The notes: generated by a model from the letters alone, not told the origin. A stretch of DNA of 16,378 bases from Promethearchaeota archaeon (GCA_048939465.1 JBHLPL010000037.1:1-16378), one strand, 5' to 3'. Positions 1,491 to 16,377 are shown, counted from the stretch's first letter. A program made the numbers and translations.

Positions 1491-2171
1491 GTGAAGACTG
1501 GTCTGAACTCGCTAAAAATGCTGAAAATATCCTTATCGACCTTTTTTCTTAGGCTTCTGCACAAAGTATACAACAGACCTCGTATTTGGAAAATCATGGA
1601 TAGACTTTTCTATGTTCACCCGACTGTATTCATGCCCCATTACACGTTTACAAGCAAGTTCTTGGCGATGAACTTGAGGGTTGGAGAATCCGCAAAAGTC
1701 TTGGATCTTGGCACCGGCGTAGGAATCCAAGCCATATTCGCTGCAGAAAACGCAAGTAGAATTATTGCAACCGATATTAACCCTCATGCAATCAAATGTG
1801 CCAAAATCAACGTGAGTTTCAACAATCTAGAACACAAGATTGAGGTAAGAAAAGGCAACATGTTTGAACCCGTGAAGGACGAGAAATTTGATGTAATACT
1901 TTTCAATCCTCCGTACCTGAGTAAGAGACCCAAAAACATGCTTGAAAGAGCATGGTTTTGTGGTGAAAAAAATGAGCTTATTGGAGAATTTGTTACAGAT
2001 GCCAGAAAGCACTTGACGAATCAGGGGTACGTGCAAATTCTGTACTCTACCTTGGGCAATTTAGCATTTCTTTTAAGGAAGTTTGACGAGGAGGGGTATA
2101 AGGTGGAGAAAATCGCTGAGAAGAATACATATTTCGAAAAATTCGTCATATACATCGCCAGATTAAACTGA
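1491..2171 (+). CDS. Class I SAM-dependent methyltransferase, HemK/PrmC (N5-glutamine/N6AMT1-like) family
   Basis: Motif I VLDLGTGVG, IIATDINPHA, post-II DVILFNPPY. The GTG start has an SD-like GGGGGT; an alternative ATG lies at 1518. Confidence 0.85.
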   Translation: MKTGLNSLKMLKISLSTFFLRLLHKVYNRPRIWKIMDRLFYVHPTVFMPHYTFTSKFLAMNLRVGESAKVLDLGTGVGIQAIFAAENASRIIATDINPHAIKCAKINVSFNNLEHKIEVRKGNMFEPVKDEKFDVILFNPPYLSKRPKNMLERAWFCGEKNELIGEFVTDARKHLTNQGYVQILYSTLGNLAFLLRKFDEEGYKVEKIAEKNTYFEKFVIYIARLN

Positions 2172-2177
2172 TTTCTT

Positions 2178-2342
2178 CATGAGGCCCCCTATCACAAACT
2201 AACACTCGACGGTGATGTTAATGCTGGAATCAGTATTTTGAAAACGATCACCTTCAGGGCAGGAAATGTCCGTAGAGCCTGCAAGACATATCCCGGTAGG
2301 GAATGGATGAAACAGGAAGCCCTACCTGAAAGGGTAGGGTAG
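2178..2342 (+). pseudogene. tnpB: Degenerate 3' remnant of an IS200/IS605 tnpB
   Basis: Reads HEAPYHKLTLDGDVNAGISILKTITFRAGNV...MKQEALPERVG*, matching the TnpB tail CxxCG-x2-DRDxNAAxNIL...MKQEA. Zn-finger Cys residues lost, no start codon, and it ends inside the right-end hairpin. Confidence 0.7.
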
Positions 2343-2347
2343 TTCAC
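2255..2347 (+). mobile_element. IS200/IS605 right end / omegaRNA-like scaffold (module C)
   Basis: GAA-GCCCTACCT-GAAA-GGGTAGGGT-AGTTCAC (stem 2319-2340, end TCAC 2344-2347). Upstream GGGCA-GGAAA-TGTCC hairpin and CCTG/CAGG pairing. Confidence 0.75.
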
Positions 2348-3321
2348 GGGTCCTTTATTCCTTCTCTCGTTATCAAAAAAACAGCTTCACCTTCTGGCAT
2401 ATTGGGAGAGTCAATCAGTCTGCAGATTCTTCTATTACCCTTGCTGCGCCTGAGATACAACCTCGTTTGCGGAACATGTGCAAGTATATGTCCACCAACA
2501 GGTTGCGTTGGATCTCCGAAGTAAACATCGGGCCTAGCCATCACCTGATTAGTTATGAACACTGCTACGTTATGGATGTCTGCCATTCGTTGAAGAGTAT
2601 GGAGGTGCTTATTCAGTTTCTGCTGTCTTCGCGCTAACATTTCCCTGCCAATGTATTCTGCCCTAAAATTGCTCATGACGCTATCTATGATCACTAATTT
2701 GATGTCTTTTTCCGGGATTATGTCTGAAGCTTGTTGTGTCAGGAGCATTTGATGATCGGAATTATAAGCTCTTGCGCACAGAACGTTTTTGAAAATCTTC
2801 TTGACATTAAGTCCTAGGCCTTCTGACATCTCCCGTATACGCTCCGGACGAAAAGTCCCTTCACAATCAATATAAAGCGCTTTTCCGGCTACTCCTCCCT
2901 GGTCTGAAGGCAATTGCACGTTTACTGAAAGTTGATGCGCAATCTGGGTTTTCCCAGTTCTAAATGGTCCAAAGACCTCGGTGATTGCTTGAGTCTCTAC
3001 GCCTCCCCCAATTAAATCATCTAAGCCCTTAGAACCGGTTGAAATACGCCCTACTTCCTGTCGCTTTTTATATAGAGCTTCTGCAGTTTCAAAACCGATC
3101 TCTAAAACACTTCTCGCTGATTCGATAATCTTCTGTGCTGTAGCTTTGCCGATATCTGCTGCAGCTGCCAACTCATCAGGTGAGGCTACAGCTACAGCCT
3201 CAACAGTCTTAAATCCTGATTCACCAAGACGCTTCGCTATTGACGGTCCTACTCCAGATAGATTTGTAAGCTCAAAAGCTTCTTCCTCCTCTTTAGTCTC
3301 ATCCTCTTCTGCTTTTTCCAA
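2344..3321 (-). CDS. radA: DNA repair and recombination protein RadA
   Basis: HhH N-domain (LSGVGP), FxxA motif (GFETA), Walker [33 protein letters not shown]. Start reassigned from 3435 to TTG at 3321, which has GGAGG about 10 nt upstream. Confidence 0.97.
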
Positions 3322-3370
3322 TGAGCTTTTTCCCTCCAATACCGGCGTTCTTCGGTAATCACTTAACGTA

Positions 3371-3411
3371 AAAGATTTATTAAGCCTTCGGCTATTATTG
3401 ATTAAATCTTT
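3371..3411. promoter_or_regulatory. Face-to-face BRE/TATA-like elements for divergent radA and OSTC-like genes
   Basis: AAAGATTTA (3371-3379) and its reverse complement TAAATCTTT (3403-3411) flank AGCC-TTC-GGCT (3383-3393). Confidence 0.55.
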
Positions 3412-3438
3412 AGTTGTTTGGTCGTGCGGTGGCATACA

Positions 3439-3873
3439 ATGGTATGGTGGCCGAGATTCATTCGAAGGCCGAAACTAAGGCTAAAGAAACCCAGGCTTGA
3501 ACTCCCAAAAGCGCCATCTCCTACGGTATGGTACGTCATTTGTGCAGTAGTTATTCTATTCATACTTGCCGGAGGAATATACAACATAGTAAATCAACCT
3601 TTACCTTTTGGGTCGAATCCGGATACAGGCGATCCGATGCTGATTCTTCGCCCTCCTTATGGTACCATAAGTGATCAATTCGTGCTGGAGGGGATGATCG
3701 GAGGAATCCTCATATTCTGTGGATTCGCAGGCTTTGTTGTCATATATGAGAGCACGAAGCATGTTTATAACCCCAGCTATGCGCTAATGCTTCTCATTGC
3801 TGGGATAGTCATGATAATACTTGCATATATCGGTGCAGAGTGGATAATTGTTATAAAAACAACATCCGCTTAG
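3439..3873 (+). CDS. Oligosaccharyltransferase accessory subunit, DC2/OSTC-like (OST3/OST6 TM-domain family)
   Basis: Three TM segments. PKLRLKKP...[12 protein letters not shown]...DQFVLEG...GFAGFVVI parallels eukaryotic DC2 (PNLKLKKP...GGIIYDVIVEP...QYIMEG...GLGFIIL, recalled). No thioredoxin domain. Start at ATG 3439 preferred over 3418. Confidence 0.8.
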
Positions 3874-3877
3874 CAGC

Positions 3878-4489
3878 TTACCATGGCACGCTTTTCAAAC
3901 TCGCTTTATATGCAATAGCATTCGCTGCGAGGTGTATTAGAGGCGTTAACACCAAGATTATAACTAGATAGGTCCAGGGCAGAGGTGTAATGATATAGCC
4001 GAACAGCAACGCCACTGCAACGAAATCCAGTTGGTCGAGGAGCGGTGCCGATTTTCCCCGTTCCAAGTCCATTCTTCTTTTGATAAAAGATCCCAAGAGA
4101 TCACCTAACAAGGCGCCTAGAGATATCAGAAACACTCGAAGAATTGAGGAATTGATTATCCTTCCCACTACTGTTGCGTCTATACCGAGCTGATACTGTA
4201 TTATTAGGGACTGCATGAGTCCATTCAAAGGATTGGCAATCAGCAGCTGCAATAGCCCGGCGGAGAATCCGATCGACAACCCACCAATAAATCCTCTTAT
4301 GGTCTTGCCGTCGCCAAATATCCGACGTTTATCTGTGAATTTCCGTCCTAGGTCTATCGGTCTTCCACCCCCCGTTACAACAGCAAAACCATTTGCTACA
4401 TATGCAGGAACTATGTAATATATTGAAAGAAAGATTATGACACCTAGGTCGCCCCATAAGTTACTCATTATGCCGAGAACCTCACTCAC
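3878..4489 (-). CDS. carS: CDP-archaeol synthase
   Basis: PAYVAN...GGGRPID.G......GDGKT.RG, GDLLGSFIKRR, LLDQLDF motifs. Start could be GTG 4489 or ATG 4468. Confidence 0.93.
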   Translation of the reverse strand: MSEVLGIMSNLWGDLGVIIFLSIYYIVPAYVANGFAVVTGGGRPIDLGRKFTDKRRIFGDGKTIRGFIGGLSIGFSAGLLQLLIANPLNGLMQSLIIQYQLGIDATVVGRIINSSILRVFLISLGALLGDLLGSFIKRRMDLERGKSAPLLDQLDFVAVALLFGYIITPLPWTYLVIILVLTPLIHLAANAIAYKASLKSVPW

Positions 4490-5201
4490 GCTTTTCTTTA
4501 TCCTCCAGGGGTTTCAGCCCCTCGTTTGTGAGTACGCAATATGTAAATGTTTCTCTATCTCGTGGATGTCCAACAAGCTCTACTTTGCGTTTTCTTGAAT
4601 AGTCTGAGACTTCCAAAAGCAGAGATAACGTGGTCCAGTGTTCTAGAACTTTCTTCCCTACTGGCACAATATCGACTACACCATCAACCATGACATCTCT
4701 TACTTGATTAGTCAAAAGAATAGCAGTCCCATACTTTTTGGCCAAACCCAGAAGCACCGCCAGCTGTCGATTGAGTTCACGGCTTAACGCAAAGTTCCTT
4801 TGAGAGTTACCCAACTCTACTCTGTAAAGTGCAGTGATAGTATCAAAGATTACTAGCTTGACTTTAGGTACTACGTACTTCTCAACGTTATCCACTATAT
4901 CGGATTGCTCTGCAAAGGTTATTGGCTTAAAAACTACTATCTCCTTGGCGACAATATCAAAATTGGTTCCTGAAATCTGTTGAAGTCTTTTTGGCGAGAA
5001 AGAGTTCTCCGTGTCGACATAGAGTGTTCTCCACCCGGAGGTTGCTGCATTTACAGCTGTCTGGATTGCGAGGGTAGTTTTCCCACTGCGTGCTTTGCCA
5101 TACACATGAGTTAGTGTTCCTGCCCTGAAACCTCCATTAAGGAGCTTATCGATATTCTTGGCTCCGGTGGAAAGCAGTCCTATGTGTATTTCATTCGGCA
5201 T
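4482..5201 (-). CDS. radB: RadB / RadA paralog
   Basis: RecA core without HhH domain: STG...D.LL.GG, Walker A GKARSGKT, YVDTE, Walker B IFDT-ITALYR, TNQV. Confidence 0.85.
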   Translation of the reverse strand: MPNEIHIGLLSTGAKNIDKLLNGGFRAGTLTHVYGKARSGKTTLAIQTAVNAATSGWRTLYVDTENSFSPKRLQQISGTNFDIVAKEIVVFKPITFAEQSDIVDNVEKYVVPKVKLVIFDTITALYRVELGNSQRNFALSRELNRQLAVLLGLAKKYGTAILLTNQVRDVMVDGVVDIVPVGKKVLEHWTTLSLLLEVSDYSRKRKVELVGHPRDRETFTYCVLTNEGLKPLEDKEKRE

Positions 5202-5382
5202 AGATGACCCTCGTATTATCTTTGCTGATTTGCATTCCTTTTAAATATGTAGCATTTAGCAAGTTCTGAAACTCATTTAAATAATACTGGTCATAACTTT
5301 TTGCTATCTTTCCAATCCGAAAGACATTTAACTACAATAATATTACAGAATACCAATTAGGCCAAGGAGTGCCTAGCAAGTC
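5202..5382. promoter_or_regulatory. AT-rich divergent promoter region (radB / aglB)
   Basis: TATA-like TTTTAAATA at 5239-5247 and ATTTAAATA near 5275-5283. Individual boxes cannot be assigned to a gene with certainty. Confidence 0.45.
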
Positions 5383-8300
5383 ATGTCACCCTCGAATGCG
5401 TTAAAGAGTATTGCAAATGCATTCAGATCCGTATTCCATAAACCCAAGGTAGAGATTAAGTTAGGCAATATTGTTCTTTACTTGGGACTGGGTCTTATCT
5501 TCTTGGTGGCACTCCTATTACGCCTTTTTCCTGCAGCGCTTTATGATCCGCTTTTGAAAGCTTTTGACCCGTGGTTTCAATATCGTTGCGCCGAATATTT
5601 GGCTGATAATGGCCTTTTCTCCTGGTTTACATGGCATGATCCCCAATCTTGGTATCCTTGGGGAAGAGACATACCCGGAAACGCATTCCCGGGACTACCC
5701 ATGGCTGCGGCTACAGTCTTTTACCTTCTTCAATCGATAGGAATATCTGTTGATATTTACACTGTTTGTTTCTTCCTGCCCGCATTCCTAGGAGCTACAA
5801 GCTGCATTGCCATGTATTTTCTAGGAAAAGAAGTCGGGGGGAGGAAGGTGGGCATTTTTGCAGCTCTACTTCTAGCTTTCATTCCTGCTCACATACAAAG
5901 AACCGTCGCAGGGTTTTTCGATAACGAAACCATAGGCATACTTACAATGGTTTTGACAGCATATTTCTTCTTGCATTCCTTCAAGCACGCATCGCCCCTT
6001 TCGGCGGTAGCTGCAGGACTAAGTCTGGGTTATCTTTCAATAACTTGGGGTGCATACCAATATCTCTTCTATCTTCTGGCCTTGTTCGCTATTCTGCTTA
6101 TGTTGGCTCGCCGCTACACTTCTCGTCTTCTAATGTCCTACAGCATTACTACATGCTTAGCAATCTTTATAGCTTCAAGGTTCCCGGTGAACGGAGGTGT
6201 CAACTTCATCTTCTCCGGAACGGGATTCATCGCCATAGGCGTTTTGGCTATTATGGCCTTATATGAGATTTTTCTCCGACTAAGGGAGACGAGATTCTAT
6301 GAATGGCTAAAGGCGAACCGAGTGAAAATAACCATGGCTATCACGGGCAGTATCTCTGCGGCCGTCATTGGCCTGTGGGTGATAGGACAGCTACCTGTAT
6401 TAATTGGTTTTTTGGAATCGGTTTTTTCTCTGTCCGCAAGATTTTGGTCCGTACTCAATCCCCTATCCCGTGAACAGGTCTTCCTTGTTGCCTCAGTTGG
6501 TGAGCATGCAACGACCACTTGGGCAGTCTTCTATTACTACCTGCACGTACTCGTTTTTCTGGTTCCCGTGGGGCTCTATTTTTCGTTTAAGCGCCTCCAA
6601 AATGAAGATCTGTTTATAATACTATTTTCAATAACCTCGTTATACTTCGCAGGTTCTATGATACGTCTACTCCTAATTTTGGCCCCTATCGTGAGTTTGC
6701 TGTCTGCAATAACCATTGTAAACATACTGAAACCCTTTGCCACAATTCTCGGTGAACAACCAACGGTTATCAGGCGAAGGAGGAAAAGAATAACCAGAAT
6801 GGTTGGTAGGGAATACGCTGTGGCATCGTTCGGACTAATCTTCATCCTGTTGACGCTAACAACTTGGCACTCTGTTGTTGTCACCCAACAGCTGTCCACT
6901 CCCGAAATGGTGGGGCTTGGCACTTTTGATGACTGGCGAGAATCTTTTCAATGGATGAGAAACAATCTCGATCAGAATGTCAGGGTACTGTCGTGGTGGG
7001 ATTATGGGTACTGGATAACGACCCGTACGAATAAGACTACATATATTGACAATGGCACGCTAAATTCCACACAGATTGCGTGGATGGCACGTGCCTTGAT
7101 ATCAAATGAAACTGAGGCTCTGAAGATATTCCGCATGTACGATGTAACTCATGTTCTAGTACATTTTGGATACTTCGTTACTGCTCTCAGTGGGGATGAG
7201 GGAAAATGGATTTGGATGGTACGAATTGCCCAAGATCACTTCCCTGATGTAATTAATGAAAGTGAATACTACGTGCAAGGTGAAGGACCAACGTTGAAGT
7301 TCTTCCAATCTCTAATCTACAAACTCGTCTTCTATGAGGAGCCCGGAGACTATTACTACAGTTCCTATGTTGAACAGATCATGAGCCAACAAGGTTATCC
7401 GTCATACGTAGGGTGGCCATCGAGCCCAGAGTGGCGGTTTATTGGAGCGGAGGCTATTTGGCCTGCATTTAGCGAGACGTATGTCTCCACCAATCACCTC
7501 GTCAAGATATTTGAATTAAATTATGATGTTCTTGATTATAACTTGACGATAACTGACACGGACATCTATCGAATAACGACTGAGAATAAAACAGCCGCTT
7601 TAGTTGATGTCAAAAACTCCGGCTCACTCCCCATGAATGTTGATCTTAACGCCAGTAACGTCCTTGCCAACGGGACAGCTATTTCTGATATGGGCGGAAG
7701 TGCGCAAATAGCTGAGGGAAGTTCCTACCTGCTGCCCGGCGAGACTTGCGTTGTGAAGATTAACTTCGGTATTAATGCGACAGAGGGCGAGGCATGGAAT
7801 TTCACCATGGGGACTGTCCAGTACTACGGGAACGCTCAGGATACATCTAACGCGACTGTTCGTCTCAATCAAACAATAAACATGGATCTCATAGGTGCAA
7901 ACGCCTACAGCAATGAAACAGTGATTCTGGATATTAACAATACTGGCGCAGAATATCTCGAAATAACCCAGGCCGAAGTGAATGGGACTAGTAGTGGAAT
8001 CTCCATAGCAAGCGACACAATCTTATATCCCGGACAAAATGAGACCTACAGAATCGTCATAAATCTGGCTACTAATCCGGACCTAAATCTGAATGAAACT
8101 AATTTCATAAATATTACGATCTTCACGTGGGAAGGTGTTAACCAAACTGTTAACGCGACCGTTCAAATACCTCCAGACTACTCTATTTTGATCAGAAATG
8201 CAACTGCTTATAGTAATGAGACCATATTCATAACGATTGAGAACACAGGCAACTATTCTATCACGCTAAATGCCTTCAATGTGAGTACGACAAATGACTC

Positions 8301-9108
8301 GGCACTAGTGCTTGGGGGAGGAATAGTAGGTATCAATGGAACCAAAACAATAGAGGCGAGTGGAATAACTCAATTCGAGCTCATGTGGGACCCAGCGGAT
8401 CTCAATCTCAATCAAAGTGAAATAATAAACACAACCGCCTTCACACTAGAAGGTATCAACAGCACGATGACGGGTCTGACAGTTCTTTTGCCGACTGGCT
8501 ACAATCTGTCCATTACACAATTAATCGTATATGACAATGCGACGGCTTTCATTACCGTGAACAATACTGGCAATTATTCTATAACAGTAAATACAATCTA
8601 CTTCTTTAACACCACATTTCCGTCTCCACTGGCATTTTCCAATATTACAGCTATAAATGGAACCATGACTATTCTACCGGGCGAGATAACTGAATACATG
8701 TGTGTCTGGGATCCGTTTATATTCAATGCAACAGAAGGAACCGATACGAACTCAACAGTGCTGATATATGAAGGATTCAACGTCTCGGCGTATAACACAA
8801 CTCTGGATTCTCAATACGCCATGGGGATTGCCAATGCTACGACTCATGTCTACAGTAATGGCACCATCGTGCTAAATATAACGAATAACGATTTCTATTC
8901 AATACACAACATAACAATACAAATAAAAAACGCAACGACCGGTGAGGTAATATTTACATACTTCTGGCAGGTTACCATAGATTCGTTTGGCTGGGATACA
9001 GTAACTTTCGACTCCGGTCTATTACTAACTGCAGGCGAAGACGTAATAATCCAAGCAAAATCAATCGAGGGCGCGAACGATCAACGAACGAAAACAGTCG
9101 AGCTGTGA
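5383..9108 (+). CDS. aglB: Oligosaccharyltransferase catalytic subunit AglB/STT3 with a long C-terminal repeat extension
   Basis: Multi-TM N-half. Motifs FDPWFQYR, GFFDNE, SVGEH, WWDYG, DNGT and DK motif DEGKWIWM. Confidence 0.95.
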   Translation: MSPSNALKSIANAFRSVFHKPKVEIKLGNIVLYLGLGLIFLVALLLRLFPAALYDPLLKAFDPWFQYRCAEYLADNGLFSWFTWHDPQSWYPWGRDIPGNAFPGLPMAAATVFYLLQSIGISVDIYTVCFFLPAFLGATSCIAMYFLGKEVGGRKVGIFAALLLAFIPAHIQRTVAGFFDNETIGILTMVLTAYFFLHSFKHASPLSAVAAGLSLGYLSITWGAYQYLFYLLALFAILLMLARRYTSRLLMSYSITTCLAIFIASRFPVNGGVNFIFSGTGFIAIGVLAIMALYEIFLRLRETRFYEWLKANRVKITMAITGSISAAVIGLWVIGQLPVLIGFLESVFSLSARFWSVLNPLSREQVFLVASVGEHATTTWAVFYYYLHVLVFLVPVGLYFSFKRLQNEDLFIILFSITSLYFAGSMIRLLLILAPIVSLLSAITIVNILKPFATILGEQPTVIRRRRKRITRMVGREYAVASFGLIFILLTLTTWHSVVVTQQLSTPEMVGLGTFDDWRESFQWMRNNLDQNVRVLSWWDYGYWITTRTNKTTYIDNGTLNSTQIAWMARALISNETEALKIFRMYDVTHVLVHFGYFVTALSGDEGKWIWMVRIAQDHFPDVINESEYYVQGEGPTLKFFQSLIYKLVFYEEPGDYYYSSYVEQIMSQQGYPSYVGWPSSPEWRFIGAEAIWPAFSETYVSTNHLVKIFELNYDVLDYNLTITDTDIYRITTENKTAALVDVKNSGSLPMNVDLNASNVLANGTAISDMGGSAQIAEGSSYLLPGETCVVKINFGINATEGEAWNFTMGTVQYYGNAQDTSNATVRLNQTINMDLIGANAYSNETVILDINNTGAEYLEITQAEVNGTSSGISIASDTILYPGQNETYRIVINLATNPDLNLNETNFINITIFTWEGVNQTVNATVQIPPDYSILIRNATAYSNETIFITIENTGNYSITLNAFNVSTTNDSALVLGGGIVGINGTKTIEASGITQFELMWDPADLNLNQSEIINTTAFTLEGINSTMTGLTVLLPTGYNLSITQLIVYDNATAFITVNNTGNYSITVNTIYFFNTTFPSPLAFSNITAINGTMTILPGEITEYMCVWDPFIFNATEGTDTNSTVLIYEGFNVSAYNTTLDSQYAMGIANATTHVYSNGTIVLNITNNDFYSIHNITIQIKNATTGEVIFTYFWQVTIDSFGWDTVTFDSGLLLTAGEDVIIQAKSIEGANDQRTKTVEL
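7537..9105 (+). repeat. Five tandem ~100-aa beta-rich (Ig-like/CARDB-like) repeats in the AglB tail
   Basis: Units begin YNLTIT / NMDLIG / YSILIR / YNLSIT / YAMGIA and share (A/V)YxNxT..I.I.NTG.Y.I, LxPG and terminal EGxN. DNA echo: aacacaggcaactattctatc vs aatactggcaattattctata. Confidence 0.7.
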
Positions 9109-9111
9109 TGA

Positions 9112-9288
9112 CTATTCCCTTTCTTTCATGAGTTGTTTTTTCAACATTCTTCGGTATTTGCCATAAGGATCAATAACAGAGAATTTCGAAGGATGCGGCA
9201 TGCGAAGGCTACCCCCACAATATGGACACCGATTCTGCTTTAGCGTATAAGCCTCGCATTTGTTACACTTTCGCAGTAGCTTACCCAT
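9112..9288 (-). CDS. nop10: H/ACA RNP protein Nop10
   Basis: CxxC..YTL...CPxCGG...PHPSKFSxxDPYGKYRR. Start moved to ATG 9288. Confidence 0.95.
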   Translation of the reverse strand: MGKLLRKCNKCEAYTLKQNRCPYCGGSLRMPHPSKFSVIDPYGKYRRMLKKQLMKERE

Positions 9289-9307
9289 CTTTCCTGTACC
9301 TCGATTC

Positions 9308-9332
9308 AATCTAATTAGATTATGGATTAATC
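9308..9332. promoter_or_regulatory. Two adjacent palindromes upstream of nop10
   Basis: AATCTAATTAGATT (9308-9321, perfect 14-mer) and GATTAATC (9325-9332). Confidence 0.35.
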
Positions 9333-9336
9333 ATAT

Positions 9337-9588
9337 CTAAACCACTCCTCCCCTGCAGAAGGGGCTTATGACTGTACTTGACCGCATTTCCCTTCCAGGT
9401 TTTTCCTCGCTACGCATGAAATCGGGGGGGGGGTGGTTGCAACGCCCCAGCCCAGCAATCCGCATGTAGCATCGGGCTTAAAGGTTTGCCCAATCTATCC
9501 TCTCGTAGGTCATTAACCCTTTCAACATCAGAGAGTGGTGTGCCTTTAGACTTACTAACACCCATAGCACAAACCTATTCAAGAATCG
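9337..9588 (-). ncRNA. Structured RNA candidate ending in an IS200/IS605 right-end-like hairpin (omegaRNA-like module B)
   Basis: Minus strand ends TAAG-CCCCTTCT-GCAG-GGGAGGAG-TGGTTTAG. Internal stems CTCTC/GAGAG, TTGGGC/GCCCGA, GCTAC/GTAGC and a G-rich/C10 helix. Loop AAACC can pair with terminal GGUUU. Confidence 0.5.
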
Positions 9589-9700
9589 CTCAATTGCTCT
9601 CCTCCCTTCCGGAAGGAGTCTCCTTGAGGTGGTTTAGAATAATGTCATGTGAGCTTACTCTTCATAGCGTTGGTCCTAGCCCACTGAGTTACTGGGGAGA
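9589..9700 (-). mobile_element. IS200/IS605 right-end / omegaRNA-like remnant (module A)
   Basis: CAAGGAGACTCCTTCCGGAAGGGAGGAG aligns to CAAGAAGACTCCATCCGAAAGGATGGAG at 16342-16369 with 5 mismatches in 28 nt, including a compensatory T-A/A-T swap. The 5' hairpin loop CUCAG can pair with terminal UUGAG. Confidence 0.6.
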
Positions 9701-9708
9701 AGGAAATA

Positions 9709-10500
9709 CTATCTCTTGAAGCTGCCCTCTCCTCCTCCGTCTTTGACGACTGCTATTACTTTTTCGACAGTCGCGGCTAGAACCCTCTCGGCAACCTTGT
9801 AGTTTTGAGCGAAGACTTCAACTCTATACCGTGGTGACCCGACCAGGTATATGCTGGTTTCACCCTCCTCCCCCTCGTTTCCGGCCTTTAACCCCTCAAT
9901 GAGCGCCTTCTTGATAACATCAATTCCATCTGATTTAAGACATCTCAACTCAAGATTTCCAGATACCTTGACTCTTGGAACCTCAACATAGGCGTCTACA
10001 ATCTCGCCTAGGACATCGGCCCATTTTTTAGTAATCCCAATTTTCAATAACACACCTATTCCCTTTTCCTTGACCTCCTCTAATCCAGTATATATGTCTC
10101 CATACTTGTCCTCGATCTTCCATCCTACTTCTTTGTACCCTTCGTCCAAGGTTTTACCTAATTTGCTGGCTGCAATCTCGAGCAAATTCTCGGCCTTTTG
10201 TGCCCTTTTCCATTCTTGAATCTTACTTCGTCTTTGTTGTTCTGTGGTCCTTCTTAGGGATAGATCAATATGTCCCTTAGACTTCTCCACTCTCAGAACT
10301 TTTACAACAACTTTTTGCTTTTCTCGGACATGATTCCGGATGTTTTTGACCCAGCTTGACGCGATTTCGGATATGTGTATCATACCCTCCACATCGCCAT
10401 ACTCATCGAGGGTTACATACGCCCCGTGAGATAGTACTCTGTTAACTGTTCCCATAATTATATCTCCAACTTCAGGAACTTCTTGCCTTTTTCTTACCAT
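9709..10500 (-). CDS. eif2a: Translation initiation factor 2 subunit alpha (aIF2alpha)
   Basis: S1 domain (GAYVTLDEY, IHISEIASSWVKNIR, IDLSLRR) and C-terminal GSPRYR. SD AGGTGA upstream. Confidence 0.97.
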   Translation of the reverse strand: MVRKRQEVPEVGDIIMGTVNRVLSHGAYVTLDEYGDVEGMIHISEIASSWVKNIRNHVREKQKVVVKVLRVEKSKGHIDLSLRRTTEQQRRSKIQEWKRAQKAENLLEIAASKLGKTLDEGYKEVGWKIEDKYGDIYTGLEEVKEKGIGVLLKIGITKKWADVLGEIVDAYVEVPRVKVSGNLELRCLKSDGIDVIKKALIEGLKAGNEGEEGETSIYLVGSPRYRVEVFAQNYKVAERVLAATVEKVIAVVKDGGGEGSFKR

Positions 10501-10543
10501 TGACGGTCACCTACGTTGTGATAAGACACGATAATTCACACCA

Positions 10544-10559
10544 CTTATAAGAATTCTTT
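10544..10559 (-). promoter_or_regulatory. Putative internal promoter for aIF2alpha
   Basis: Minus strand AAAGAATTCTTATAAG (BRE-like plus TATA-like), 44-59 nt upstream of the start. Confidence 0.45.
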
Positions 10560-10595
10560 AATAACAGAAAGTCTGCTATTTTGGTGATGGAACGA

Positions 10596-10790
10596 TCAGT
10601 CCAGAACGGATATTATTACAGTCGTTACTCTCCCTTTCCCGCCAGTGGGTTCAACCAGAACCTTTCCGCATGCCTCACAGTTCACAACTGTCTTGGCACA
10701 TCCGAAGACAATCTGCTCTGTTTTACATTCCGGACATCTGACTCTAAGGAATTTGCTTCTTGGGAAAGGTATGAGTTCTCTACCAGACAC
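10596..10790 (-). CDS. rps27e: 30S ribosomal protein S27e
   Basis: PRSKFLRVRCPEC...Q.VF......V.C..CG..L.EPTGGK. Confidence 0.97.
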   Translation of the reverse strand: MSGRELIPFPRSKFLRVRCPECKTEQIVFGCAKTVVNCEACGKVLVEPTGGKGRVTTVIISVLD

Positions 10791-10802
10791 TTCTCCATCC
10801 CC

Positions 10803-11078
10803 CTAGACTATTTCCAACTTTCTTAATCGCATACCTTCTCTATGATGTATGTATCCACATTCGCTGCATCTGAATTTTAGCGATTGTTTCTTAGTGGTCT
10901 TCGCGACCTTCTTTGGAACTGGTTTGGGTTGACTACCGTACCCTGCTTTTTTGCGAGCGTATCTTCGAGCACCCGCAGCTAATGTTCGATCTTTTCCCCT
11001 CTTATACAATGAGACTGTGTGACTGGAATGCTTCTTGCATTTTGGACAATATGTTCTAATGTTCTTGCTAATTCTCAT
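10803..11078 (-). CDS. rpl44e: 50S ribosomal protein L44e
   Basis: TYCPKCKKH...GYGSQPKP...KTTKK..L..RC.ECG. Confidence 0.97.
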   Translation of the reverse strand: MRISKNIRTYCPKCKKHSSHTVSLYKRGKDRTLAAGARRYARKKAGYGSQPKPVPKKVAKTTKKQSLKFRCSECGYIHHREGMRLRKLEIV

Positions 11079-11635
11079 GATGATTCACTCCACTTCTGTG
11101 CAATTTTGGTGGCAACGCCTCGGTTCATTAATACTATTGCATTATTTGCAGGTAGAATCGCTACGTCATCAGACTCAAACGGCCCGTATGTCCTTAAATC
11201 TGCTCCTACAATGGCGGGAATTGATCGAAGTAACCGTACTATTAAGTATTTCGGCTCGTCTTTCACGTTTTTTGTTATTTCTTCTCCTTTAAAAACTAGT
11301 AGTTGCTCTAAGCATTTGTTGACGCTGTCTATTATGCTTTTATGCATCTCTTCCTCCGCAACGGTGAGCTTGTCCAAATTGATTTCAGATCGGCTCTTTA
11401 ATACATTAAGTATTTTCGCCATACGAAGGTCAAAAAGATCTTTCAGCATAAAACGCAAATTCTCTAATTCCCTTTTTGTGAGTTTCCATACAAGTGTGTC
11501 TCGACCCACCTCATCCAGTACCTTTTCAAGATTGAATACGTATTCTTGGATTTTGCTATAGAAATCGTCGGGTAGCTCCCGAAGGTATTCATCTTCTTTT
11601 TCCTTAGTCCATAATTCATATATCTCGTTGTACAA
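11075..11635 (-). CDS. gins: GINS complex subunit (Gins15/Gins51 type)
   Basis: LP.DFY, R..KI helical A-domain and C-terminal B-domain (IPAIVG.D...YGPF...DVA.LP..NA.VL...G.A). Start reassigned to TTG 11635, just after the priS stop and with GAGGAG upstream. Confidence 0.88.
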   Translation of the reverse strand: MYNEIYELWTKEKEDEYLRELPDDFYSKIQEYVFNLEKVLDEVGRDTLVWKLTKRELENLRFMLKDLFDLRMAKILNVLKSRSEINLDKLTVAEEEMHKSIIDSVNKCLEQLLVFKGEEITKNVKDEPKYLIVRLLRSIPAIVGADLRTYGPFESDDVAILPANNAIVLMNRGVATKIAQKWSESS

Positions 11636-11636
11636 A

Positions 11637-12884
11637 TTATTCTCCTCTCGGAAAAGTCGCTGCTCCCTTACACAATAGATAGATCCCTGCAGACATAGGG
11701 AGCCTGACTTCTTCTTCTTTGTATGGGCCGAATACTTCATCCCCTATGCGAAACTCCGGTGCATGCTTAACGTAAACAATGATTTCTCCTTGGAAAACCT
11801 GACTATCCTTGAATGGATCAAATCGTTCCAGATCAAAAAAGGTTAGAGGAATCACTTTAAACCCCGTCTTACCATGCAAAGATGTTGGTAGTCTCATCAA
11901 ACGATGTATATCTTTCGTAACTGGCTCATCTATCCTAACGCTCGCTCTATGCGCTGCCATCTCAATAAGTTTGTACCAAGTTTCGATATCTACTCCCCTT
12001 ATAACGTCCCAAAATGGCTGTTTGCTTTTCAACCCCCGAAGTATTTCTTCTTTATTCTCTAAGATAAGTTTGAGTTTTGCTTCACTAATTCCTTCAATGC
12101 TTTGCGGGCTTTCCAGATTCTCAACATAGGCTTGAAACATTCTAGCAATCCTTCCGCGCCATCCAGTATCTTCAGTTCTTGGTCCAACAATGACTTTTGA
12201 TCTTCGTCTTCCAACCTTCTCGTGCAGACCATGGAGTTTCAAGTCAAGACCAGTGACTTTCATGTAGTCCACTATTTCCTGTCTTGCTTGAGAGTCCATT
12301 TTTCTGATCGTATCTTTCTCAATGTGAATATGATATCCTCTGTGACCCGAGAAACTGATCTCAATTTCACTCTTACTGAATCCGAAATCCGGTACCAGAT
12401 ACTCTTCTACTGCTTTGACAACCTCGTTCTTGGTTACTGCCAAACACTCTTCACAAACCCATCGTGTTTCTTCGATTCTGCTAGAATCGCATTTTGGACA
12501 TTTTTCTGGCTTTTCTCCTCTATTCCTCTCACCGCAGTCCTTGCATTTCCAGAGATCGTGTTGTTGCTCACAAGGCGTTGGTATATGGTCTGCATCTATA
12601 TCAAAAACCAGGTCACAACCCAACCATTCTTTTTCGTTCATTTTGGGCGCTCTGGGATCATCATAATACGCTGCTGAATAATACGCATCAGATGGTGCAT
12701 CTTGCCTTAAGTATAAGCGTAATTCCTGCTCATTTTTGAATCCTATGTGCCGTATAACTGAATCCTTGTCAAAATAAAAAAAGCCGAATTCACGTTTAAT
12801 AAGCTCCTTGGGGCCTTTTACTGAGTCAGCAGACCTACTGTAATACTCTGCGAATTTTGCTTTAAGAAAATCCTCGACTCTCAT
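11637..12884 (-). CDS. priS: DNA primase small (catalytic) subunit
   Basis: REFGF, LVFDIDAD, FSGHRGYHIH, IDEPVTKDIHRLMRLPTSLHGKTG. Confidence 0.96.
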   Translation of the reverse strand: MRVEDFLKAKFAEYYSRSADSVKGPKELIKREFGFFYFDKDSVIRHIGFKNEQELRLYLRQDAPSDAYYSAAYYDDPRAPKMNEKEWLGCDLVFDIDADHIPTPCEQQHDLWKCKDCGERNRGEKPEKCPKCDSSRIEETRWVCEECLAVTKNEVVKAVEEYLVPDFGFSKSEIEISFSGHRGYHIHIEKDTIRKMDSQARQEIVDYMKVTGLDLKLHGLHEKVGRRRSKVIVGPRTEDTGWRGRIARMFQAYVENLESPQSIEGISEAKLKLILENKEEILRGLKSKQPFWDVIRGVDIETWYKLIEMAAHRASVRIDEPVTKDIHRLMRLPTSLHGKTGFKVIPLTFFDLERFDPFKDSQVFQGEIIVYVKHAPEFRIGDEVFGPYKEEEVRLPMSAGIYLLCKGAATFPRGE

Positions 12885-13921
12885 TTTGCCTTTAGACTCC
12901 TTCTCTTCAGTCTATAGAATCCCAAAGGATGTTTAACCCTGTCGCAGATGGGGTCTCCTTTGGGGCACAAACCGTATGTTCTGAGAGTACTACATGAAGG
13001 CGGGGTATATTTTGTGCGTCCCCCACGAAGTCCCCCGATGTGCTCAACTTGATAACGTGCAATTTCCTCCCTGAAGTCTGGAGCCGATCTGTAAATCTCG
13101 ATAATGCGGTCTGTGGGGGTTCCAATTCTTATCAGAAACGTGGTTATTGCGAATCTTCCTTGGTGTGACAAACTCTTGCTTTCTGAAATCGCCGATATTA
13201 ACTGCTTCATACAGGGCGGAAATGCCTCTCTCCTAACAGGCCCCTCCATATCACCATATTCTCGGATTCTTCTTCGATGTTTTTTCCATAACTCCTTTAG
13301 CCGCAGAGTCGCGTCTTGAACTTCTGAGGGAACATCTTCCAGTCTTGGAGGATCGGGAATCTCACGCTCTATTATTCTCCACTTCACCGCTTCAGCTACT
13401 AATCTTACAGTCTCCCTTTTCTCCAAAAACACAAATCCTTCTGAAATGCCTCTGTTTATCAGTTTCCAGCGGATATCATGGAACTTTGGAGCGAATTCGA
13501 GATAATCGGAGAAATGCATTTTCCAGTCATATAAGACGTCATCGATAATTCGCCTTGTCTTACTTATGCCCCATCCGAAAGTTTTAGTCGTTATCCAAAT
13601 GATTTTATCGTCTTCTTCAGGTTCCAAAAGAGTTTGAGCTCTTTTTGATTCGAAATCTGCCCACCTTGCCTTCAATAGGTTGTCGCCAAGCAGAACTATC
13701 AGTAAACGCGCCACGGGAAACGAGAGGATTTCATTAGTATCTGTTTGCCATGAGATTACTTCCCCACCATGTTCTACGGCATCCACCACTCTCTCCTTTG
13801 CTCGTTCTATGACTTCCTTGTAGTCATTGGCGAGCTTCGATATACTAATATCCAGCGTTTTGACTAGTTCTGCTGCTTCATTTGTCCATGGATACTTGGC
13901 CAAATCTCGCTTACTTAACAT
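12881..13921 (-). CDS. priL: DNA primase large subunit
   Basis: KYPW, FPPCM, GRFAITTFL, YQVEHIGG, PPSC...GLC.....C (four Fe-S Cys), HPL.FY. Confidence 0.95.
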   Translation of the reverse strand: MLSKRDLAKYPWTNEAAELVKTLDISISKLANDYKEVIERAKERVVDAVEHGGEVISWQTDTNEILSFPVARLLIVLLGDNLLKARWADFESKRAQTLLEPEEDDKIIWITTKTFGWGISKTRRIIDDVLYDWKMHFSDYLEFAPKFHDIRWKLINRGISEGFVFLEKRETVRLVAEAVKWRIIEREIPDPPRLEDVPSEVQDATLRLKELWKKHRRRIREYGDMEGPVRREAFPPCMKQLISAISESKSLSHQGRFAITTFLIRIGTPTDRIIEIYRSAPDFREEIARYQVEHIGGLRGGRTKYTPPSCSTLRTYGLCPKGDPICDRVKHPLGFYRLKRRSLKAK

Positions 13922-13955
13922 TCTCTTATCACAAAAACCAAATGCGAGTCTCTAA

Positions 13956-14708
13956 TCACTCGGATTCTATTCGAGGGGCAAGATAATATACTATCCTCCC
14001 CCCATTCAATAACACGAAATCGAGTCTGATTGGCATGTTTGTAGAGTATTGCAGTTCGACAATATCTGTTGTGGCAGCTGCCTTCATAATATCTGACAAG
14101 TAATCAAGCGCATACATTGCCTTGGATTCCTCTTTAACATTCATCTCCAGCAAGGCATCACTTTTCTTGTTAAGCTTTATCTCTAGCTCTCCTGTATCTC
14201 CTGACGCGAATAATCCCAGCTCTTTGTTTGATGTCACCATTCTTATGTGGTCGCTAATTATGGCAGCATCATCAATGGCCTGTCTCAGTACGTCTGTGGT
14301 GACCTTTGCAAAGGCGTTAAACTCTATTTTGGGCGTGGGTAGTTCTTCCATTTGCAGATCTAAAAGCGCAAGGCTAAAAGTCCTCGTTGCTTTGCCCTTA
14401 AAACGCGCATTTAACCTATTTGTCTTTTCATTTAGACTCAGTTCAAGGGAATCCCCACTTCCTCCCCTACGCATTATTTTAGTCATTTCATCCAAATTGA
14501 TACCTAATTGAATCTCCTTTGAACATCGGTAGTCATCAATCGCGCCTTTGGGCATCTCGAAATCGATCATGGCGATATGGGACGGATCCATAGCCTTCAT
14601 CCTGATCCCCCCAGGAGCAGCGGTAAAATTCGCCTCATCCACAAGTGATGACAATGCCTCAACTATGCTCCTCCACAGTTTTGCATCACCAAACAACATT
14701 TGAAACAT
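13956..14708 (-). CDS. pcn: DNA polymerase sliding clamp PCNA
   Basis: AMDPSHIAMID, YALDYL, C-terminal YYLAPRIE. Start moved to ATG 14708 (MFQM...) with GAGGGAAAG upstream. Confidence 0.97.
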   Translation of the reverse strand: MFQMLFGDAKLWRSIVEALSSLVDEANFTAAPGGIRMKAMDPSHIAMIDFEMPKGAIDDYRCSKEIQLGINLDEMTKIMRRGGSGDSLELSLNEKTNRLNARFKGKATRTFSLALLDLQMEELPTPKIEFNAFAKVTTDVLRQAIDDAAIISDHIRMVTSNKELGLFASGDTGELEIKLNKKSDALLEMNVKEESKAMYALDYLSDIMKAAATTDIVELQYSTNMPIRLDFVLLNGGRIVYYLAPRIESE

Positions 14709-14826
14709 GACTTTCCCTCTAATCGTTTCTGCGAGATTAATGGAGACTATCAAAGTGCCACTTCAACTACTAATACACCTCAGAGATATATACATTATGC
14801 TGCGACAGGGCGGCCTTACATTTCTA

Positions 14827-15147
14827 TTATTCATTTTGCGTAAATCTCTTCCTTAACTCATAGACTTCCATGTATATTGTCAGATCCAAATCATCCATGT
14901 TTTGGATGATACTTGCACCTATCTCAAAACTCCCGTCTTCCTTCCTATGAATATCGCCCATGGCGCGTATGATATTTCCTATTTCCGCCCCCCTGTCTGT
15001 CTTGACCACGATAGAACCGGAACCATCATCCAAAACCACAAATCCTGGTCTGGAGTCTACTACTCGCCCAACGACTCTAACTCTAATATCATTTGGAGAA
15101 ATATCTTTAATGACTCTCCATTTTGCAGGGGGCCGCCTATCTGTCAT
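14827..15147 (-). CDS. Single OB-fold protein, RPA14/RPA3-like small replication protein A subunit
   Basis: RR.PA....I..I....RV...G.V......LDDGSG...V......G...R..G..., as in Thermococcales RPA14. Start at ATG 15147 preferred. Confidence 0.78.
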   Translation of the reverse strand: MTDRRPPAKWRVIKDISPNDIRVRVVGRVVDSRPGFVVLDDGSGSIVVKTDRGAEIGNIIRAMGDIHRKEDGSFEIGASIIQNMDDLDLTIYMEVYELRKRFTQNE

Positions 15148-15261
15148 CAGATTCGTCACTCTCAAATCACATTCGGTGGTCTCAGAACCGTGGTCTATCA
15201 CAGACCACCCTTGGTTAGAAGGGGGACCTGTATTAAGTTTTTTCCTGCAAGAAGAAGAGTT

Positions 15262-15738
15262 CTACAACGTTTCTCGAAGCGCTTTCAAGAGGATTCGGTA
15301 CATATGTACTTTTCTTCTGCTATCTATTGCAATCATTCCGTAGGTTTTCACTCCCAGCATTTTTTCCACGCGATCCGGTGACAATACGCCATCTATATCC
15401 TGTTTATTGGCGATTCCGAAGATCTTACCGCCCTTAAGTTTTTTCAGCCACTTGAGCATTCTCTTTGCACTCAACACGTTTTTTGGAGTGGAGTCTGTGA
15501 CCAATAGAGTGATTTTTGAACCTCTTATCAAATCTTCAATCATAAAACCAAATCTATCCTGTCCAGCAAAATCAAATATCGAAATTGTGGCATCAATCTC
15601 TCTTAAAGAAGCAGTTGCGAAGTTTATTCCGATAGTGGGATCATACTTTTTTGTGACTCTTTTTCCACTTATCAGTTTTGCGATGGTAGTCTTTCCAACA
15701 CCGCCAGGACCCACTACTGACACTTTTAAAATGTTCAT
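15262..15738 (-). CDS. Small Ras-superfamily GTPase (Arf/Rab-like, Asgard-type)
   Basis: G1 GPGGVGKT, G2 PTIG, G3 DFAGQ, G4 NKQD, G5 xIAI. No lipidation motif. Confidence 0.9.
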   Translation of the reverse strand: MNILKVSVVGPGGVGKTTIAKLISGKRVTKKYDPTIGINFATASLREIDATISIFDFAGQDRFGFMIEDLIRGSKITLLVTDSTPKNVLSAKRMLKWLKKLKGGKIFGIANKQDIDGVLSPDRVEKMLGVKTYGMIAIDSRRKVHMYRILLKALRETL

Positions 15739-15907
15739 ATGTCATCCTTCCTCTAATTCTAACCCGCGCGTCATTTCTTTTAAGAATTCGTACTATTTGG
15801 AGAATATGCTGATATTACCGAATTATTACTGAAGAGTAGGCGGGAGCAACTTCCAAATCTTTTTAAATAGAATTGCTCTTTCTCGTATCCTACAGGAAGG
15901 AGGAAAT

Positions 15908-16249
15908 GTGGATTTCTGTCCAGAATGTGGCGGGTTACTACTTCCGAAGAAGGAGGGTGGAGAAGTAGTACTCAAATGTCGGAAGTGCAATTACGTTCGC
16001 AGCTTAGGTTCTGCTAGTGGAGAATCTAACGAAGAGTATACTCTACCGCAACACATACCTCACTCGCCAAAAGACAAGACTGTAATTATAAAAGAAGAGA
16101 TAAAAACGATGCCCACCACAAAAGCAGAGTGTCCTAAATGTGGTTGTAAGAAAGCCTATTACTGGCACGTTCAGACGAGGAGTGCTGATGAGGCAACGAC
16201 TTCTTTTTTTAGATGTACAAAATGCGGTCACACATGGAGAGAGTACTAG
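15908..16249 (+). CDS. tfs: Transcription factor S (RpoM/TFIIS-like)
   Basis: Two Zn ribbons and QTRSADE with the acidic DE pair intact. GTG start with GGAGG; TATA-like TTTTTAAATA about 40 nt upstream. Confidence 0.95.
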   Translation: MDFCPECGGLLLPKKEGGEVVLKCRKCNYVRSLGSASGESNEEYTLPQHIPHSPKDKTVIIKEEIKTMPTTKAECPKCGCKKAYYWHVQTRSADEATTSFFRCTKCGHTWREY

Positions 16250-16264
16250 CGAGTTGTCTTCTCA

Positions 16265-16377
16265 AAATCTCTCTAGTGAGAGACTGCATCCTCCCGCAGG
16301 CTTTTACCTTCAGAATGATTTGACCTTTATCTTCCTCTCCGCAAGAAGACTCCATCCGAAAGGATGGAGTAGTTCAC
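16265..16377 (+). mobile_element. IS200/IS605 right end / omegaRNA-like remnant (module D), no tnpB ORF
   Basis: GAAG-ACTCCATCC-GAAA-GGATGGAGT-AGTTCAC (perfect 9-bp stem 16349-16370). Upstream hairpins TCTCTC/GAGAGA and CTGC/GCAG. Confidence 0.72.

Follow-up and report, generated by a model that had tools for sequence, protein, structure and literature searches.

Four intergenic hairpins in a 16,378-base contig of a Promethearchaeota archaeon (GCA_048939465.1 JBHLPL010000037.1:1-16378) are very probably explained by three non-autonomous IS200/IS605-type elements that carry subterminal hairpins. The contig (C73), taken whole, is called the window below, and positions count from its first base. 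It belongs to a 1.96-Mb metagenome-assembled genome (MAG) of 152 contigs, with 43% G+C and an estimated completeness of 91%. The host is an Asgard archaeon (Odinarchaeia), and the gene content of the window fits an archaeon.

The hairpins, labeled A to D, had previously been read from the sequence alone as four equivalent right-end, omegaRNA-like modules. Our alignments identify C (2175-2347, + strand) as a 5'-truncated insertion sequence (IS) that consists of the last ~50 codons of tnpB and a right end (RE). Judged by the same kind of evidence, one 301-nt palindrome-associated transposable element (PATE) of family F2 (9337-9637, - strand) has A as its left end (LE) and B as its RE, and D (16331-16377, + strand) is a 47-nt terminal-only PATE, a fusion of LE and RE that has no scaffold. 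Thus, the equivalence of the four modules must be given up, and the omegaRNA likeness survives in part: C and B are REs that keep a segment homologous to the tnpB 3' end, where the omegaRNA scaffold lies, and A and D are not. The proposed IS200/IS605 origin is upheld, because the ends match those of tnpB- and tnpA-bearing elements in the same genome, and the alternative that the sequence-only reading had itself offered, IS debris, comes nearest to the truth.

Repeat families and the elements of the window

BLAST comparison of the three spacers with their own genome places each within a dispersed repeat. Two families, F1 (~222 nt, 14 full copies) and F2 (~298 nt, 18 full copies), share a common plan. 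Each begins just after TTTAT or TTCAT and continues with an LE hairpin, a TATA-like motif ~20 nt farther on (TTTAAATA in F1 and CTTAAATAC in F2), a structured body, and an RE hairpin, and then ends in a family terminus (TAGTTCAC in F1 and TAGTTTAC in F2). In F1, F2, and the A-B element, the LE and RE hairpins repeat one another in direct and not in inverted orientation, and inverted terminal repeats are lacking. In profile searches, the genome yields ~85 ends of the LE type and 44 of the RE type; more than 90% of the ends are without tnpB, and TTTAT or TTCAT flanks 37 of the 85 LE matches exactly. The window elements measure 301 nt, 47 nt, and, for the C remnant, ~173 nt, which is too short for a transposase.

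The four hairpins have a related architecture, as had been claimed:

Hairpin C, + strand: stem 2320-2327/2332-2339, GAAG before the stem, loop GAAA, then TAGTTCAC (2340-2347).
Hairpin D, + strand: stem 16350-16357/16362-16369, GAAGA before the stem, loop GAAA, then TAGTTCAC (16370-16377).
Hairpin A, - strand: stem 9618-9611/9606-9599, GAGA before the stem, loop GGAA.
Hairpin B, - strand: stem 9364-9357/9352-9345, TAAG before the stem, loop GCAG, then TGGTTTAG (9344-9337).

All four stems comprise 8 bp, and that of B includes one C-A mismatch. Predicted RNA folds are better than those of shuffled sequences for C (z = -4.0), D (z = -6.9), and A (z = -2.95); B, a decayed copy, folds no better than its shuffles (z = -1.1). 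When profiles built from the genome copies are applied to the window, the scores are far above chance. C reaches 90.3 bits with the F1 profile (nhmmer) and the A-B element 280 bits with the F2 profile, and a covariance model of the hairpin module (R1) gives 72.8 bits for D and 35.4 bits for A. Compensatory stem changes, also claimed earlier, are present across family members; the covariation is modest, as is expected for hairpins that are read by TnpA.

For comparison with the window, we used two congeneric genomes (G001 and G002), whose flanking genes are 75-91% identical to those of the window, and contigs from four DNA runs of three other studies. The parts of element C are as follows:

2175-2240, + strand: tnpB 3'-end remnant, reading LHEAPYHKLTLDGDVNAGISIL, zinc-finger/RuvC-III region.
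2236-2347, + strand: F1 right end (omegaRNA-scaffold region), matching nhmmer F1 profile positions 113-224.
2344-2346, - strand: radA stop codon TGA, inside the terminal TTCAC of the element (radA ORF, 2344-3435).

The tnpB remnant, which had been noticed earlier as a decayed tail, is real: it is identical at 14 of 22 positions to residues 340-361 of the TnpB encoded on contig C2 (BLASTP), a match that spans the LD-DVN motif of RuvC-III, and DNA alignment places it with a tnpB-linked right end. The remnant lies directly after the stop codon of a methyltransferase gene (2169-2171) and in the same frame. The right end corresponds to the last ~112 nt of F1 and contains stems at 2257-2271 and 2278-2316, the terminal hairpin at 2320-2339, and the terminal motif. 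Its fold (z = -3.0 for 2236-2347) is supported by the alignment and by the consensus fold. Because C has no left end, the remnant cannot transpose.

The radA product ends in GIKDP, followed here by a TGA codon that the element supplies; in G002, which has no element at this site, GIKDP is followed by TAA at the same codon. The methyltransferase-radA spacer of G002 is 131 nt long and holds no trace of C, and homology of radA resumes exactly past the last base of the element. At window 2160-2177, the methyltransferase open reading frame (ORF) ends in RLN and a stop codon, and its counterpart in G002 ends in KHIAEST and a stop codon. These last codons were apparently reshaped by the deletion in which C lost its left end and most of tnpB.

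The A-B element is complete, and its recognizable parts are these:

9337-9637, - strand: complete but decaying F2 PATE, ranked 11th among the 18 full copies and matching positions 1-298 of the F2 profile (nhmmer).
9599-9618, - strand: LE hairpin (A) of the F2 PATE, recognized by R1.
9575-9583, - strand: degenerate TATA-like motif, CTTGAATAG versus the family form CTTAAATAC, presumed internal promoter.
9337-9368, - strand: RE hairpin and terminus (B) of the F2 PATE, one mismatched pair, ending in TGGTTTAG versus the consensus TAGTTTAC.

The TATA-like motif forms a conserved block of columns in the F2 alignment and in the list of left ends, and it may act as a promoter. The spacer between the gene for a 1241-residue protein and the aIF2-alpha gene measures 394 nt here and 136 nt in G002, in which the F2 copy is absent. 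The window copy is worn: its flank reads TTATT, its TATA-like motif is altered, its poly-C/G tract is expanded, one pair of the RE stem is broken, and the RE ends in TTTAG versus TTTAC in the family. The poly-G/C tract (9399-9433) varies between metagenomes, and in one mangrove sample it has seven bases fewer at 9424 and one additional C behind 9399.

Element D has the following parts:

16326-16330, + strand: target motif (TAM) TTTAT to the left of D; loose ends of other copies begin at 16326.
16331-16377, + strand: terminal-only PATE (hairpin D), in which an F1-type left arm leads into the only hairpin (16350-16369), followed by the RE tail TAGTTCAC.

D aligns with 17 other copies, and at least 18 such minis with fused ends (~48 nt), D included, occur in the genome and comprise both F1 and F2 types. 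The window contig ends one base past D. A contig from another study continues for 621 nt past the window end, which shows that D is no artefact of assembly. Neither G001 nor G002 has D downstream of the TFS gene.

Parent elements and mode of movement

No intact tnpA or tnpB ORF is present in the window, in agreement with the sequence-only reading. Elsewhere in the genome, three TnpB genes and one gene for a Y1 transposase (tnpA, on contig C105) were found, and the ends of the window elements are linked to them. On contig C2, a tnpB-only element encodes a TnpB of 383 residues; its LE is F1-like, and its RE aligns with C. A second tnpB is broken in two, with one piece at an end of contig C70 and the other at an end of contig C55. 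The pieces overlap by 25 residues, and the LE and RE associated with this gene match F2; an RE homologous to hairpin B follows tnpB on C55. The two halves are located at C70:3-914 (L004) and C55:5735-6043 (L003). The two contigs are probably adjacent, with the break caused by the repeat. The third tnpB belongs to the tnpA-tnpB element of C105, which resembles F1 in its RE: a hairpin of the same kind, with loop TTTA, precedes the shared terminus TAGTTCAC. Thus, tnpB-linked homologues of the hairpins exist, on C2 for the C family and on C70 plus C55 for the B family.

The catalytic motifs of these proteins were also compared. The C2 TnpB aligns with ISDra2 TnpB with a score of 209 bits, and the positions of the D, E, and D motifs are kept. 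In the TnpB of C70 plus C55, the motifs DLG, IEDL, and SDLN match when read by eye. In the C105 TnpB (L002:658-1941), a glycine replaces the RuvC-II glutamate (IIVGDLEV). A published TnpB clade with a rearranged RuvC-II carries such a change, for which another glutamate is thought to compensate. The glycine fits this clade and thus is not evidence of a dead nuclease.

Comparison with the congeners indicates that the elements are young. When G001 and G002 are taken together, all three window elements are absent at the orthologous loci, despite the many copies that both genomes hold elsewhere, which argues that these are recent insertions and not conserved modules. Another F2 copy, on contig C66, corresponds to an exact, duplication-free empty site in G002, and its insertion is shared with G001; a second locus, on contig C23, shows the same pattern. 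A search with the covariance model of the hairpin module had been suggested earlier. It yields 52, 15, and 30 matches in the three genomes of the genus. Beyond the genus the distribution is patchy: five other Asgard genomes give small numbers, and of 25 relatives, 18 have none, the complete genomes of the sister genus among them. Such a patchy spread is the pattern of mobile DNA.

These observations are consistent with the following course of events. Element C would have been a tnpB-carrying element that inserted antisense onto the radA stop codon and later lost its LE and most of tnpB, so that it is now immobile. The A-B element would descend from a tnpB-only element through a deletion that spared the LE, the TATA-like motif, and the last ~150 nt, which include the tnpB 3' end and the RE. 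D would have arisen by deletion between near-identical LE and RE hairpins, or have been copied after such a deletion. The elements would move as single strands whose hairpins are recognized by the Y1 TnpA of C105, for which the matching ends make it the candidate mobilizing enzyme. This TnpA is expected to cleave behind TTYAT on the left side and behind TT(C/T)AC on the right side, and to insert the element, without duplication, on the 3' side of a further TTYAT. According to the published homing model, an omegaRNA from B or C, loaded onto a TnpB in trans, could then cut the emptied sites again. Of these elements of the account, family membership, parents, target motif, exact empty sites, and absence from congeners are observed directly. 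It is plausible, and has already been proposed in print, that a parent TnpB may use PATE omegaRNAs in trans.

Several points weigh against this account. Only a single tnpA was found, in a genome that is an estimated 91% complete, and a 48-nt mini directly in front of the C105 element blurs the definition of its LE. The window F2 copy, given its non-consensus flank, weakened TATA-like motif, and changed terminal base, may no longer be mobile. Finally, no excision allele was seen: the contigs from other studies that span C and A-B have only point differences and the change in poly-G length, and none of them bridges a site from which an element is missing.

Gene boundaries and other readings of the hairpins

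The elements C, A-B, and D all lie 33-80 nt downstream of co-oriented genes, so the earlier description of modules parked at gene 3' ends holds for the window. It does not hold across the families. In a rough census based on an approximate hexamer-scored ORF caller, 13 of 18 F2 copies are antisense to both neighboring genes, and 7 of 14 F1 copies follow a co-oriented gene. The minis follow a co-oriented gene in 12 of 18 cases and are enriched in convergent spacers, as would follow if insertions that hit promoters were selected against.

The target and end motifs bear on this placement. On the other strand, TTYAT reads A-TRA-A and the element end TT(C/T)AC reads G-TRA-A. Thus, an element that lands antisense on a stop codon swaps in its own stop at the same position. 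At least five other right ends give a TGA or TAA stop to a convergent gene with a 4-nt overlap, as C does for radA. Similarly, TTCAT is the reverse of ATGAA, and by the same approximate gene calls at least 10 of the 18 full F2 copies lie antisense and directly 5' of an ATGAA start codon, versus 13% of non-disruptive TTCAT sites. Examples of such copies are L076:851-1149 (C66), L077 (C23), and C61:18116-18414. Read on the opposite strand, these motifs hold stop and start codons, which explains how elements can lie without harm at the borders of essential genes, radA among them.

On its reverse strand, the F2 left end has GAGGTGG, followed after 5 nt by the ATG, an arrangement that resembles Shine-Dalgarno (SD)-like motifs; such motifs occur upstream of 22% of predicted starts versus a background of 4%. 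Given this resemblance, the left end may serve as a ribosome-binding site. The assembly did not yield a 3' end of 16S rRNA from which to read the anti-SD sequence, and a search of the literature for IS605 elements with an SD sequence or with insertion at start codons returned nothing.

An alternative is that the modules are kept as protein-less guide RNAs, which would arise through read-through of host genes and would serve a TnpB, a nuclease-dead (TldR-like) TnpB, or a Fanzor-like protein in trans, to the benefit of the host or of the element. We consider this improbable, even though the scaffold regions of C and B are homologous to right ends next to tnpB, three TnpB genes are present in the genome, all window elements are downstream of and co-oriented with a gene, and trans use of PATE omegaRNAs has been proposed (10.1101/2023.03.14.532601). 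With A a left end and D devoid of a scaffold, only two of the four hairpins could give an omegaRNA. Host read-through is not a general source of RNA, given that full elements have a TATA-like motif of their own and that most F2 copies run antisense to their neighbors. Conservation at orthologous loci is lacking in the congeners, which tells against domesticated modules. A TldR-like dead TnpB likewise finds no counterpart among the family parents, which keep D-E-D on C2 by alignment and on C70 plus C55 by reading of the sequence, and the glycine of C105 has the explanation given above. Moreover, a search for second genomic targets of the 16-nt flanks that follow the right ends produced only 2-mismatch sites at about the chance level, and the few closer or TAM-adjacent sites are internal F2 repeats that a loose search pattern had included.

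A further proposal would have the right ends of C and the PATEs transcribed and loaded onto TnpBs in trans to give ~45 guides, with the guide of C covering the last radA codons. We regard this as very doubtful. The C locus is shielded from self-cutting by only one base, the end motif being TTCAC versus TTCAT in the target. If the proposal were true, TnpB at radA might influence radA expression or repair, beyond transposon homing.

It is just as unlikely that the hairpins serve mainly as 3'-end signals of upstream genes, that is, as terminators or mRNA-stabilizing structures of the REP type. Their position 33-80 nt behind co-oriented genes and the similar orientation of two-thirds of the minis would agree with such a role. 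However, the same genes lack these hairpins in the congeners, most F2 copies run antisense, an excess in convergent spacers would be expected from purifying selection on insertions, and archaeal termination is known to rest on oligo-T tracts. A chance origin without common descent, for which only the poor fold of B speaks, has next to no probability given profile and covariance scores of 35-280 bits and dozens of homologous copies.

Gene setting and comparison with known systems

The genes of the window include those listed here:

2344-3435, - strand: RadA gene (ORF).
5383-9108: gene for a membrane protein of 1241 residues (unscanned).
9709-10500, - strand: aIF2-alpha gene.
15908-16249: TFS gene.
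Other genes of the window: CDP-archaeol synthase, RadB, GINS, and a small Ras/Arf-like GTPase.

We take the 1241-residue protein to be an AglB-type oligosaccharyltransferase, two further unscanned ORFs to be the two primase subunits, and another to be PCNA. A protein of 124 residues (14827-15201, - strand) has weak Pfam matches to Ten1, a component of the CST complex, and to RPA3, and is encoded among DNA-replication genes, including GINS (Pfam) and the ORFs taken for PCNA and primase; this protein is possibly a small subunit of the RPA/CST type in an Asgard archaeon. Another protein (209-1459, + strand; 416 residues) is rich in lysine and glutamate, is probably a coiled coil, and has no Pfam matches. 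An Rfam scan of the window with E values up to 1 gave no match, and no tRNA or tmRNA was found in it.

The practical value of these results lies mainly in annotation: the repeats should be masked as PATEs and not annotated as small-RNA genes or terminators, and they explain contig breaks in this MAG. The genus also has an expanding IS200/IS605 population (~85 ends, three tnpB genes, and one tnpA gene) for which the TAM TTYAT, the scaffolds, and the cognate TnpBs are defined, and it could thus be a test bed for the use of omegaRNAs in trans in archaea.

The REP sequences and REPINs of bacteria are short hairpin repeats related to IS200/IS605 ends that are located between genes and are presumably moved by a single Y1 transposase (RAYT). 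The present elements differ from a REP/REPIN-RAYT system: the 18 minis are single (in stretches of 68-70 nt) and do not form inverted doublets, and tnpA is no lone domesticated gene but is directly followed by tnpB in an ordinary IS, which a mini adjoins upstream.

TldR proteins are nuclease-dead, domesticated TnpBs that act with guides (Wiegand et al. 2023 preprint, PMC10705468); in the present genome, no dead TnpB, no conserved locus, and no guide that matches another site were found. A closer likeness to D is VNG_R0052 of Halobacterium salinarum (Gomes-Filho et al. 2015, PMC4615843), a fused LE/RE of an IS200/IS605 element in an archaeal intergenic spacer, whose RE hairpin has a conserved tetraloop. 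The VNG_R0052 RNA was shown to be expressed, whereas D is known as sequence; the loop is of the GNRA type here versus UUCA there.

In Geobacillus, LE and RE sequences are common to PATEs and to tnpB-only and tnpA-bearing elements of the same genome, as here, and one tnpA serves many non-autonomous copies, as is presumed here (10.1101/2023.03.14.532601). According to that study, omegaRNAs are often encoded by PATEs and would depend on a TnpB supplied by another element. The present case differs in its archaeal host, in its presumed TATA-box promoter, and in being described from genome data only.

The elements are real and their attribution to IS200/IS605 is right; their kind has already been described, and only the members are new. 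The PATEs of Haloquadratum walsbyi (Dyall-Smith et al. 2011, PMC3119063) are likewise gene-less, lack inverted terminal repeats, have near-terminal palindromes of the IS605 type, and insert at a short target oligonucleotide without target duplication; they are described as having originated from IS605-type transposons by deletion. Terminal-only PATEs of 52 bp (HqIRS46 and ISHwa23), formed by deletion between similar hairpins, are known there, and the 47-nt element D is their counterpart. In comparison with the Haloquadratum PATEs, those described here have an Asgard host, the target TTYAT, and the ends TT(C/T)AC, and their longer forms keep a TATA-like motif and the scaffold derived from the tnpB 3' end.

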